Program-made: the position numbers and the translations under genes | From: a virus | Reading direction: 5' to 3' (one strand) | UHGV virus genome: UHGV-0165227 | DNA: 34,611 nt | Notes under the pieces: model-generated | Seen by the model: the letters and a program-made list of their open reading frames with translations, nothing else | The model's database searches: none | What the model was told of the DNA's origin: nothing | Shown: piece after piece, positions 28,272-34,360 of the stretch | How positions within the stretch are numbered: the stretch's first letter is position 1 | Layout: each line of letters opens with the position of its first letter

Positions 28272-28315
28272 AATTTTAAGCCATCAGCAGGACGCACTGA
28301 CCACCATGAAGGTGA

Positions 28316-28346
28316 GGCTCTTAAAAATTAAGCCCTGAAGAAGGGC
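28316..28346 (+). promoter_or_regulatory. nutL (boxA-like GGCTCTTA + boxB GCCCTGAAGAAGGGC)
   Basis: boxB perfect hairpin at 28332-28346; context ATGAAGGTGA-GCTCTTAAAAATTAAGCCCTGAAGAAGGGCAGC as in lambda nutL. Confidence 0.75.
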
Positions 28347-28614: not shown

Positions 28615-28941
28615 ATGGATGCACAAGCACGCCGCCGCGAACGTCGCGCAGAGAAACAGGCTCAATGGAAAGCAGCAAATCCCCTGTTGGTTGGGGTAAG
28701 CGCAAAACCAGTTAACCGCCCTATTCTCTCGCTGAATCGCAAACCGAAATCACGAGTAGAAAGCGCACTGAATCCGATAGACCTTACGGTGCTGGCTGAA
28801 TACCACGAACAGATTGAAAGCAACCTGCAACGTATTGAGCGCAAGAATCAGCGCACATGGTACAGCAAGCCACGCAGTGAAATGGGTGTGACTTGTGTTG
28901 GTCGCCAGAAAATGAAATTAGGCAGCAAACCACTTATTTGA
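28615..28941 (+). CDS. N: Antiterminator N
   Basis: Arg-rich N-terminus MDAQARRRERRAEKQAQWKAANPLL, lambda N-like throughout. Confidence 0.9.
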   Translation: MDAQARRRERRAEKQAQWKAANPLLVGVSAKPVNRPILSLNRKPKSRVESALNPIDLTVLAEYHEQIESNLQRIERKNQRTWYSKPRSEMGVTCVGRQKMKLGSKPLI

Positions 28942-28949
28942 GGTGATAT

Positions 28950-29201
28950 ATGGAATTTCATGAAAGTGCGATTTGTGATTTTCGCGCTAACGCAAATTCA
29001 GTAAAACCACAGCCAATTGCAGTTCTTTTTAAAACAATGGGGGCGTGGGCTGTTTTATGCTTCGCCGCTGACGACACTGACGCAAGAATGGCAATAGGCC
29101 AAGAGATGGAGATGGACCCGACAAACGATGAATTCATAATTTATGGCGCTCCATCTAATTACTTACTTGATACCTGCAACATTTACAACAAGGCTGCCTG
29201 A
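28950..29201 (+). CDS. Hypothetical protein downstream of N
   Basis: GAGGTGA RBS before ATG 28950; 83 aa, no recognised family. Confidence 0.45.
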   Translation: MEFHESAICDFRANANSVKPQPIAVLFKTMGAWAVLCFAADDTDARMAIGQEMEMDPTNDEFIIYGAPSNYLLDTCNIYNKAA

Positions 29202-29260
29202 TGGTGGCCTTTATTTTTTGGCCGTAAATAATTTCATGCTTATTACAATCAAGGGGATAT

Positions 29261-29710
29261 ATGGAAGAACAAGCAAACAAGATTCTCGTAGAACTACTGC
29301 AAAAAGCCAGCAATGGAATAGACATGGCTGTTTCATTCAGCCAGGCGCAGATTCCTGATGTTGTTCATCAGTTGCTGCTATGGAATATGGTTGACAGTCT
29401 GATTAAAACATTAATAGCCATTCTAACAATCCCACTGGTTTTCTGGTTTATGAAGAAGCAGTGCCGAAGAGTTGAGACAGGTAAAATCGGTGATGAAGGA
29501 TATTCATGGGAGAAGGGAAATCCCAAATACAGGCCGACAATGGTTTGGGATAGCAAAGGTGATATTAATCTTCTTATCATGCCATTAGTTGTAGTTTTGG
29601 CTCTGTGGGGGATTTTTATTATTAGTGCAGTAACCAATATGACATGGTTAAAAATTTTGCTGGCTCCAAAGCTTTACCTTATCGAATATGCAGCATCATT
29701 GGTTAAGTAA
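29261..29710 (+). CDS. Two-pass membrane protein (149 aa), function unknown
   Basis: AAGGGGA RBS; two hydrophobic helices; followed directly by intrinsic terminator. Confidence 0.5.
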   Translation: MEEQANKILVELLQKASNGIDMAVSFSQAQIPDVVHQLLLWNMVDSLIKTLIAILTIPLVFWFMKKQCRRVETGKIGDEGYSWEKGNPKYRPTMVWDSKGDINLLIMPLVVVLALWGIFIISAVTNMTWLKILLAPKLYLIEYAASLVK

Positions 29711-29714
29711 TTTC

Positions 29715-29740
29715 AGGCCGCATAGTCGGCCTTTATTTTT
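29715..29740 (+). terminator. Intrinsic terminator
   Basis: AGGCCG / CGGCCT stem, 6-nt loop, TTATTTTT. Confidence 0.6.
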
Positions 29741-29859
29741 GGCATAAACAACAGAATAAACACTGCACTGTGTATTCATTCCAACGAGTGAATACACGGA
29801 GCAATGTCGCTCGTAACTAAACAGGAGACGACTTGTTCTGATTATTGGAAATCTTCTTT

Positions 29860-29885
29860 GCCCTCCAGTGTGAGGGCCTTTTTAT
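29860..29885 (+). terminator. Intrinsic terminator upstream of cIII
   Basis: GCCCTC / GAGGGC stem, 6-nt loop, CTTTTTAT. Confidence 0.5.
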
Positions 29886-29949
29886 ATGCATACCAATAAC
29901 GCTTCACTTGAGGCGTTTTCGTTATGCAATCAAACAGAAGGAGCATCCT

Positions 29950-31082: not shown

Positions 31083-31544
31083 ATGGCAAGCAGAGGCGTA
31101 AATAAGGTGATTATCCTTGGTCGGGTAGGACAAGACCCGGAAGTTCGATACTCACCATCAGGTACAGCGTTCGCTAACCTGACAATAGCCACGTCAGAAC
31201 AATGGCGAGATAAAAATACTGGCGAGCAAAAGGAATTGACTGAATGGCATCGTGTTGCTGTATCCGGGAAACTGGCTGAGGTCGTGGGGCAGTATGTGAA
31301 AAAAGGTGATCAGATTTATTTCGAGGGAATGCTGAGAACCAGAAAGTGGAAAGACCAGTCAGGGCAAGACCGTTACACAACCGAGGTTCATGTCGGAATT
31401 AATGGCGTGATGCAAATGCTTGGCGGCATTGGCGACAGCAAACAACAAGCAGCCAGCAGGCAATCACAGAAGCCACAGCAGCAATCATCACCAGCACAAC
31501 ACAACGAACATCCTATGAACTTCGACGATGAGATCCCATTTTAA
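31083..31544 (+). CDS. ssb: Single-stranded DNA-binding protein
   Basis: OB-fold N-terminus [23 protein letters not shown], Gln-rich linker, acidic tail DDEIPF. Confidence 0.9.
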
Positions 31545-32832: not shown

Positions 32833-32985
32833 TGACACGCTATATGTTCGAGCTGACCTTGTGAATGGCAACTCTCCGGTAACTCCGGATGGTTCGGATG
32901 ATGGTTAACCATTTTTGATGTAAAAACATCCTTCTCTGAGGGCTTGCTCCTCAATAAGTTTGGTTTTATAATTATGCGCAATGAA

Positions 32986-33039
32986 GGTGGGCGGTTCGCT
33001 ACTATACAAGAGGGGTGTACCCCGCGAACTTAACCCACC
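32986..33039 (+). other. Predicted nested stem-loop immediately upstream of the NYN-domain gene
   Basis: GGTGGG (32986-32991) pairs with CCCACC (33034-33039); GTTCGC (32994-32999) with GCGAAC (33024-33029); inner GGGG-TGTA-CCCC hairpin (33012-33023). Confidence 0.35.
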
Positions 33040-33057
33040 ACCCCTTTCCTCCCTACT

Positions 33058-33705
33058 ATGAATTGCAAATCAATGACCAGAAAATATGCCATCATGATCG
33101 ATGCTGGTTTTTTGCGTGCAAAATTAGGCACAAAAGATAAGCCAATCGATGCGGAAGTAATCAAAGTATTTGTAGAAAAACTAACAAAAAGGCCTGAACT
33201 AGAAGGCATGATTTTGCACCGTGTTTATTATTACGATGCAGAGCCGCTTACCGGAATACAGACGCATCCGATTAGTGGAGAGAAAATTGACTTCTCTGAA
33301 ACAGAAGTTTCTAAAAGAAATAAAGCCATGCTTGATGAGTTGAAAAGAACTCCTTTTTTTGCAGTAAGACTTGGAGAGACAAACTTTCGAGGATGGAAGG
33401 TTGACCCATGGGCATTAAAGAGCAGTGACTCTAAAACTTCTTCCATTAATGCCTACAATGTTAAGCCTAATGTTCAGCAGAAAGGCGTTGATATGCGTAT
33501 TGCGTTAGATATGTCATCAATGTCATTAAAAAAACAGGCAGATATATATGCTTTGGTGACTGGTGATTCAGATTTTGTTCCAATTATAAAATTTGCCAGG
33601 AAAGAAGGCCGACAGATTTTTCTATACACACTGGGACATAGTGTCAAGCAGACGATGTATGAACATTCCGATTTGTTAGTGCCAGATACCATGGATAAAT
33701 TGTGA
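33058..33705 (+). CDS. NYN-domain (PIN-like) predicted ribonuclease
   Basis: NYN signatures: N-terminal YAIMIDAGFL strand and GVDMRIALDM...VTGDSDFVPII; start uncertain (33058 or 33073), no clear SD. Confidence 0.6.
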   Translation: MNCKSMTRKYAIMIDAGFLRAKLGTKDKPIDAEVIKVFVEKLTKRPELEGMILHRVYYYDAEPLTGIQTHPISGEKIDFSETEVSKRNKAMLDELKRTPFFAVRLGETNFRGWKVDPWALKSSDSKTSSINAYNVKPNVQQKGVDMRIALDMSSMSLKKQADIYALVTGDSDFVPIIKFARKEGRQIFLYTLGHSVKQTMYEHSDLLVPDTMDKL

Positions 33706-33807
33706 TTGGAGCTAGGAATAGGTTAGCCGCGCCTTAATAGATGATCCATTCTGGCAGAAAAAGAACACAAAGAAGTAGCCTAAGTGCCCCCAACAGCATT
33801 TACACCC

Positions 33808-33940
33808 AGGCCCTCATTGCGGGCCTTTCTATTTACAGAGATGGCTGAGCAGAACGCCAAGAACTGACAACCTGAACGAATACGAACCCGCCTAGTGCGG
33901 GTTTTCTTTTATCTGAACTCGCTACTGCGAGTTTTGTTTT
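33808..33940 (+). terminator. Three consecutive intrinsic-terminator-like hairpins (33808-33834, 33885-33910, 33916-33940)
   Basis: Each is a 6-7 bp GC-rich stem followed by a T-tract; second and third are tandem near-repeats. Confidence 0.5.
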
Positions 33941-33952
33941 ATGGAGATGATT

Positions 33953-34252
33953 ATGGTCTGTTCAACATTCAACCCTCTAACGTTACAGAAATACCAGCCA
34001 GACCCTGAAGATTTATGCTCACTGTGTGGCGGAAATCATGGCAAAGCCGCCATGATCGAATGTAAGGACAAAATCCACATATGCCTTAATTGCGTTGATG
34101 TCCTCGTTGATATCAAAAATGAGAGAGAAGATAAAAAGCGTAGCGAGGCTGTTCGCGCCTTAGATTCATGGATGCGAGATGGGTATAGTGCCGCGCAAAT
34201 TTATGACTTAGCAATATCAAAAGGCGAAATACCAGGAGTGCGTATCGAATAA
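33953..34252 (+). CDS. Cys-rich (zinc-ribbon-like) hypothetical protein
   Basis: GGAG RBS 7 nt before ATG 33953; CSLCGG...ICLNC paired-Cys motifs. Confidence 0.4.
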   Translation: MVCSTFNPLTLQKYQPDPEDLCSLCGGNHGKAAMIECKDKIHICLNCVDVLVDIKNEREDKKRSEAVRALDSWMRDGYSAAQIYDLAISKGEIPGVRIE

Positions 34253-34360
34253 GACGTAACCAACATTCGAATTGAAGAACTGAAAGAACACCAAGCCGCC
34301 TGATGGCGGTTTTTTATTGCCTGATTTGCAGGTTCGATTCCCTATTCGGAGATAGCACTC

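Follow-up and report, generated by a model that had tools for sequence, protein, structure and literature searches.

Why a phage operon should place three terminator-like hairpins in a row ahead of one small gene is the question raised by the window, by which we mean the whole 34,611-nucleotide stretch of viral DNA analyzed here (UHGV virus genome UHGV-0165227). An earlier note on this DNA had described three stem-loops downstream of an NYN-domain gene, each followed by a T-tract, and had taken them for terminator-like elements. Our reading, to which we give a probability of roughly 0.7, is that the three hairpins (H1, H2, and H3) are putative Rho-independent terminators in the sense orientation of the early-left (pL) operon, that they would have come from three different cassettes, and that polymerase modified by the antitermination protein N would read through them.

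Three hairpins with T-tracts in the early-left operon of a lambdoid prophage

The window is a P22/Sf6/HK620-like lambdoid E. coli prophage whose early-left operon occupies the + strand from about position 28300 on. After N, this operon comprises, in order, a Rad52-family recombination gene, abc2, an Ea22-like gene, the NYN gene, a homolog of gene 19/L0063, and a TorI-type excisionase gene. An SSB-like ORF at 31083-31544 is the counterpart of Sf6 gene 27, judged by position and by eye. The features that frame the hairpins are as follows.

28317-28346, + strand: lambda-type nutL, with a boxA-like GCTCTTA (28317-28323) and boxB GCCCTGAAGAAGGGC (28332-28346)
28615-28941, + strand: gene for the N antitermination protein (PF11438, N36; E 3e-25)
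33058-33705, + strand: NYN-domain gene (PF01936), cargo of the cassette 32908-33837
33808-33836, + strand: H1 and its T-tract; GC-rich hairpin of 6 bp (33808-33826), last element of the NYN cassette
33884-33914, + strand: H2 and its T-tract; hairpin of 8 bp (33884-33904), putative terminator of a theta-like gene
33915-33940, + strand: H3 and its T-tract; hairpin of 8 bp (33915-33934), ortholog of the predicted lambda terminator t4
33953-34252, + strand: downstream gene (PGAP start, phrog_3680), encoding a 99-aa homolog of Sf6 gene 19 and 933W L0063 with no assigned function

The nutL site resembles that of lambda, with a boxA (GGCTCTTA) one base apart from lambda boxA (CGCTCTTA). Both nutL and the N gene precede the hairpins within one transcription unit and on one strand, the distance from nutL being about 5.5 kb. 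It is textbook knowledge that phage operons under N antitermination contain terminators, and this operon, which the earlier note had overlooked, is a setting in which such terminators are expected. A total of 15 terminator-like sites were found on the + strand of the window, 8 of them in the pL operon, where they form clusters at 29190-29917 and 33808-34312. In lambda, tL1, the tL2 cluster, and tL3, which polymerase modified by N passes, are likewise sense-strand intrinsic terminators, some of them clustered, within an N/nutL operon, and the window repeats this arrangement with one proximal and one distal cluster. The proximal cluster contains four + strand hairpins past N (at 29190, 29715, 29860, and 29898), and its position recalls the tL1/tL2 series of HK620, whose record annotates tL1, tL2A-D, and tL3 in the early-left operon.

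We then considered the hairpins themselves. The arms of H1, AGGCCC and GGGCCT (33808-33813 pairing with 33821-33826), enclose the 7-nt loop TCATTGC and are followed by the tail TTCTATTT. In H2, GAACCCGC (33884-33891) pairs with GCGGGTTT (33897-33904) across the loop CTAGT, and the tail reads TCTTTTATCT. In H3, GAACTCGC (33915-33922) pairs with GCGAGTTT (33927-33934) across the loop TACT, and the tail TGTTTT runs to 33940. Local RNA folds gave -10.9, -12.0, and -11.2 kcal/mol for H1, H2, and H3, with z-scores of -2.8, -3.2, and -4.4, respectively, and all three hairpins persisted when the entire 255-nt intergenic stretch was folded. The stems are within the range of about 5 to 12 bp of intrinsic terminators, with GC pairs at 5/6 (H1), 5/8 (H2), and 4/8 (H3) positions, and at least five of the eight bases past each stem are T on the + strand, i.e., in the sense of the pL operon. 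Each T-tract is broken by one or two non-T bases (UUUCUAUUU, UUUUCUUUU, and UUUUGUUUU for H1, H2, and H3, respectively).

We evaluated 5,000 dinucleotide-preserving shuffles of 33706-33952 with the same kind of terminator criteria. A single terminator-like site turned up in 73 of them and two or more in none, compared to three in the real sequence, which excludes a chance origin of the three sites. Direct reading, a consensus scan, and the folds thus agree with the earlier note that three stem-loops, each with a T-tract, are present on the + strand, and the description as terminator-like also stands, since their layout fits that of intrinsic terminators and no shuffle reached two sites. A terminator acting on the minus strand was considered and rejected: the tail of H2 would there read CGTATTCGTT, and an H3 with the frequent U·G allele would have a C·A mismatch on that strand.

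The three hairpins belong to different cassettes

The earlier note had placed all three hairpins after the NYN gene without distinction. Alignments and cassette edges uphold this for H1, which lies in the NYN cassette, but give H2 and H3 another origin. According to these comparisons, H1 appears as a part of the NYN cassette, H2 as the orphaned terminator of a theta-like gene, and H3 as a widespread element of the lambda t4 type. Two gene remnants delimit these parts.

33838-33883, + strand: stump of a DNA polymerase III theta-like gene (last ~10 codons, TGA at 33865-33867) and its 3' untranslated stretch
34253-34318, + strand: 3'-end remnant of lambda orf55 and a t5-type putative terminator (stem 34293-34312, -13.0 kcal/mol)

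The NYN cassette (32908-33837) was found in 7 of the 5,426 complete E. coli genomes. Its right edge (33837/33838) coincides with the end of the H1 T-tract, similarity to theta-gene loci starts from there, and the NYN gene has a G+C content of 36 to 39%, versus about 43 to 49% in flanking windows. Morons are phage cargo genes with their own promoter and terminator. The NYN cassette is similar to them in being rare, lower in G+C, and equipped with its own putative terminator, H1, and its promoter is a candidate seen by eye only (TTGCTC-17 nt-TATAAT, 32944-32972), absent from the output of the consensus scan. The phage homologs closest to the NYN protein belong to Firmicutes phages and share about 34% identity with it, and PADLOC returned weak matches to an NYN nuclease model (E 2e-5). 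In E. coli EC6563 (NZ_CP095856.1, 1514169-1517519), an identical block running from the NYN gene through the hairpins and the gene 19 homolog to torI adjoins dsdC. An opposite-strand lysis gene is located about 600 bp upstream of the NYN gene in this strain, and the locus looks like the remnant of a heavily deleted prophage of the same type. In the window, TTTACAGAGATG (33832-33843, past H1) and TTTATGGAGATG (33938-33949, past H3) agree at 10 of 12 bases, a similarity that looks coincidental or could be the trace of a junction.

The stump of the theta-like gene was recognized by alignment to two loci with an annotated theta-like gene before the same H2, and homology to the window begins at 33838 in 9 loci. 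In two related loci inspected, the theta-like gene is annotated as a pseudogene with an internal stop.

The counterpart of H3 is found in lambda, where the element lies between ea8.5 and orf55 and where, in the pL direction, two tandem hairpins precede the start of orf55. The first (t3) is ATCCTCGC-ACTC-GCGGGGAT with the tail TTATTTTATCT, and the second (t4) is GAACTCGC-TACG-GCGGGTTT with the tail TGTTTTATGGAGATGATAAATG. Terminators t3, t4, and t5 of the lambda exo-xis region are in silico predictions made with ARNold, t5 being the hairpin past orf55 (Bloch et al. 2014, PLoS One 9:e108233, PMC4195576, Table 4). H3 is identical to t4 (TTTTATCTGAACTCGCTACGGCGGGTTTTGTTTTATG) at 35 of 37 bases, and the window hairpin at 34293-34312 is identical to t5 at 38 of 40 bases, t4 and t5 themselves being predictions. 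H2 shares its position and T-tract with t3, but the stems differ (GAACCCGC versus ATCCTCGC), and H2 does not qualify as a t3 ortholog; homology of the window to lambda-type loci starts only at 33899.

The window and the lambda exo-xis region nonetheless have the same order of elements, i.e., the last exo-xis gene, two hairpins, a small gene, a hairpin, and xis. What sets the window apart is the extra hairpin H1 from the NYN cassette and the gene 19/L0063 homolog, which stands in the place of orf55 between t4 and t5. Since the 3' end of orf55 and t5 are left at 34253-34318, the gene 19 homolog has replaced the body of orf55 between conserved flanks. The hairpin at 34293-34312 lies just upstream of a site matching the pI promoter annotated in Sf6.

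Neither of the two lambda records annotates a terminator between ea8.5 and orf55. In the literature searched, no paper besides PMC4195576 dealt with the t3/t4 sequence and no experimental mapping of this distal pair was found; most papers on tL3 either dealt with synthetic TL3S terminators or lacked a sequence. Likewise, no transcript 3' ends or read-through measurements were found for the prophage, the lambda source being an in silico prediction (PMC4195576). The ea8.5-orf55 pair is not tL3, which is located directly after exo according to a description of pKD46 (PMC8402550). Cryptic prophages of K-12 were also set aside as carriers, as the K-12-like matches proved to be lambda lysogens.

Constraint on the H2 and H3 stems

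Tandem Repeats Finder reported a repeat at 33884-33942 with a period of 30, 1.9 copies, 82% matches, and a score of 83. As read from the sequence, the lone stem difference between H2 and H3 is compensated, with C33888:G33900 in H2 versus T33919:A33930 in H3. H2 and H3 are therefore tandem near-repeats with one compensated difference, as had been noted before. The further claim that this compensation indicates selection for the structure was only partly borne out. The C:G to T:A swap does exist between the paralogous copies, but a formal pair count over 37 distinct sequences of H3 orthologs, which are 98% paired, found no pair altered on both sides; changes were one-sided, chiefly U-A versus U·G. 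Because the H3 orthologs lack two-sided changes, the compensatory change is real only between the two paralogous copies, and the covariation evidence for H3 is thin.

Other features of the loci speak to structure more directly. The H3 alleles are split between GCGAG (U-A, 60 loci) and GCGGG (U·G, 50 loci). Both alleles pair in the + strand RNA, while the second gives a C·A mismatch on the other strand, and the constraint is therefore on the pL-sense transcript. Stem-breaking variants of H3 were seen in one or two loci apiece, and nucleotide diversity in the H3 stem-loop, with the A/G site left out, was about 0.012 (pi), versus 0.066 at the third codon positions of orf55. At the position of H2, different phages carry at least five unrelated GC-rich stems with the same TTTCTTTTATCT after each: the stem of lambda, which includes a U·G pair; two versions with C:G or U-A instead, the latter with a loop of 6 nt; the stem of the window; and AGCCCGC/GCGGGTT. 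Other types at this position include one with a stem of just 4 bp and one (type D, three loci) without a convincing hairpin. The unrelated stems at the H2 position and their shared T-tract are better evidence for structure than covariation.

A conserved 53-bp core at a mosaic junction

A sensitive search with 33790-33965 against 5,426 complete E. coli genomes gave matches in 2,416 of them, lambda included, and nearly all matches span just 33899-33951 with at least 90% identity. This stretch defines a core.

33899-33951, + strand: 53-bp core, made up of the H2 3' arm with its T-tract, the complete H3, and a ribosome-binding site
33943-33946, + strand: GGAG ribosome-binding site within the conserved core, serving different downstream genes

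In most of the matches listed, no annotated feature underlies the core. Related prophages thus keep the H3 core, on whose conservation the earlier note had made its reading depend. We also used a flank pattern (TTATCTG, 18 to 24 free bases, and TTGTTTTATGG), which retrieved 120 viral contigs. Of 124 loci, 104 have their left homology breakpoint relative to the window at 33899/33900, and 113 have their right one at 33946-33951. When 200 nt on each side of 118 loci were clustered, 27 upstream and 7 downstream sequence clusters were obtained, in many combinations around the one core, which therefore marks a mosaic junction. All four combinations were found both for H2 type with the H3 A/G allele and for H3 allele with the downstream gene.

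This pattern invites another explanation, in which the core is kept mainly as a shared stretch for homologous recombination that allows flanking genes to be swapped, its terminator shape being secondary. The sharp breakpoints, the many combinations of clusters and alleles, and the presence of the core at high identity in so many E. coli genomes all fit such a role. Boundary sequences of lambdoid phages were reportedly described by Clark et al. in 2001 for HK620, and the core resembles them as a short conserved early-left stretch with reassorting modules on both sides. Within this operon, the Sf6 record also has annotated boundary sequences. The core is not among them in the part of that record covered, where bsq2 corresponds to the xis region and bsq3 to the gene 21/22 border, and where the gene 20-gene 19 spacer holding H3 is unannotated. 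Sf6 bsq2 was examined as an element that might cover the hairpins and does not extend over them. Moreover, a stretch of 53 bp offers little length for efficient exchange of the RecA or Red type, the survivors of rare illegitimate joins at gene borders would give the same pattern, and the H3 A/G site is a transition that may recur by mutation. Recombination also leaves unexplained why unrelated sequences at the H2 position all form hairpins. We consider this explanation a genuine but doubtful possibility, and one that is compatible with the hairpins being terminators.

A wider contig scan relied on a loose pattern that also matched random AT-rich sequence and lambda-identical contigs in unrelated assemblies. 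Among the matches listed, non-lambda copies came only from Escherichia sp. E1V33, Shimwellia pseudoproteus, and a Segatella copri MAG contig of the E. coli-phage type. Thirteen loci had the lambda sequence across the ea8.5-orf55 spacer. The species-representative assemblies that were checked among them belong to Shewanella canadensis, Algoriphagus pacificus, Chromatium weissei, two Pseudomonas sp., Pseudoxanthomonas kalamensis, Bradyrhizobium frederickii, an Ancylomarina sp., and a Pseudomonadales MAG, and the remaining loci show the same sequence. Such lambda-identical stretches are most likely contaminating lambda control DNA. One of these loci (L197) has two copies, one with a rearranged left flank.

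Other roles for the hairpins and the core

The hairpins could instead be mere message stabilizers that shield processed 3' ends from exonucleases with little termination, or H1 and H2 could be neutral leftovers of cassettes. The interrupted U-tracts and modest stems would suit this, as would the three type D loci at the H2 position. H2 is also orphaned, and it cannot serve the theta-like gene because that gene no longer exists. However, the hairpins display a full terminator layout, including a T-tract that would be superfluous for a pure stabilizer, and the collected loci show hardly any variation in H3 or the H2 T-tract, both of which are widespread in E. coli genomes. We therefore find stabilization alone unlikely and favor the terminator reading.

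Conservation of the core extends to its loop and spacer, which exceeds the strict need of a terminator, so another sequence-level role may add to its conservation. A double-hairpin Hfq-binding module has been described for enterobacterial small RNAs. H2, the U-rich spacer, H3, and poly-U would, by analogy, resemble such a module, with two hairpins, UUUUCUUUUAUCU between them, and UUUUGUUUU after them, and a stable small RNA processed from the 3' end of the upstream message could bind Hfq through them. The same lambda operon offers a precedent, since the PreS/LPR1 small RNA ends at tL2a (bioRxiv 10.1101/2024.10.31.621285). Like H3, the PreS/LPR1 end is an early-left terminator conserved across many prophages, but neither a stable small RNA nor Hfq-binding evidence was found at H3. 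An Hfq RIL-seq study of lambda names three small RNAs, and its main text does not mention ea8.5, orf55, or xis (bioRxiv 10.1101/2024.10.31.621285). Rfam assigned no family: a search at a permissive E-value gave sub-threshold chance matches (such as Trp_leader at 19.6 bits versus a cut-off of 41), and one of the whole window at gathering scores gave none. The sequence upstream of the core, in which a seed region would be expected, differs between phages, as seen from the 27 clusters, and the consensus scan shows no nearby promoter, making a small RNA very unlikely. More broadly, it is improbable that the core is more than a terminator, whether as a point under selection at which lambdoid phages exchange cargo genes beside the excision module or as the Hfq-binding 3' terminus in a so far undescribed family of small RNAs that derive from messages and vary in their 5' parts with the upstream gene.

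H3 adjoins a shared ribosome-binding site

The third T-tract had been described as ending directly before a start codon. It does end at 33940, and the ATG at 33941 is the start of the longest ORF, but the likely start is at 33953. The GGAG at 33943-33946 is separated from the ATG at 33953 by 6 nt, RefSeq PGAP placed the gene start of an identical copy at the equivalent of 33953, and the 99-aa profile phrog_3680 covers residues 1 to 99 of the protein translated from 33953. In addition, TTTTATGGAG is common to at least seven unrelated downstream genes with varying ATG offsets, and this comparison identifies it as a putative shared ribosome-binding site rather than a start codon. The downstream gene thus probably starts at 33953 rather than 33941, in which case the T-tract of H3 adjoins the ribosome-binding site and not the start codon.

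Discussion

We infer termination at H1-H3 and read-through by N-modified polymerase from the hairpins with their T-tracts, the homologies, and the operon in which they lie. The NYN cassette may have been acquired recently, replacing the body of the theta-like gene, with H1 closing the cassette. H2 would be what was left behind, and H3 would be a terminator of the t4 type joined to the ribosome-binding site from which the following gene is translated. The fourth terminator in the series, of the t5 type, would lie past the gene 19 homolog, just before the excisionase gene (torI/xis). During lytic growth, pL polymerase modified by N at nutL would read through all of these hairpins. Unmodified polymerase, i.e., early pL transcription before N accumulates as well as transcription from cargo-gene promoters in the lysogen, would be stopped before the gene 19 homolog, the site corresponding to pI, and the excisionase gene. 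Given the interrupted U-tracts and the stems of 6 to 8 bp, each hairpin may terminate only partly, and moderate terminators in series could sum to a tight block. The core would then probably help keep the excisionase silent unless N is made.

The feature is real but ordinary, and its value as a discovery is small, as the central hairpin had already been predicted in lambda. Its value lies in annotation: in about 45% of complete E. coli genomes, an unannotated element of 53 bp separates the cargo genes from the excision module. For lambdoid prophages, the core marks a site where cargo such as the NYN gene is swapped, and a stack of terminators can accumulate there through cassette insertion rather than by design.
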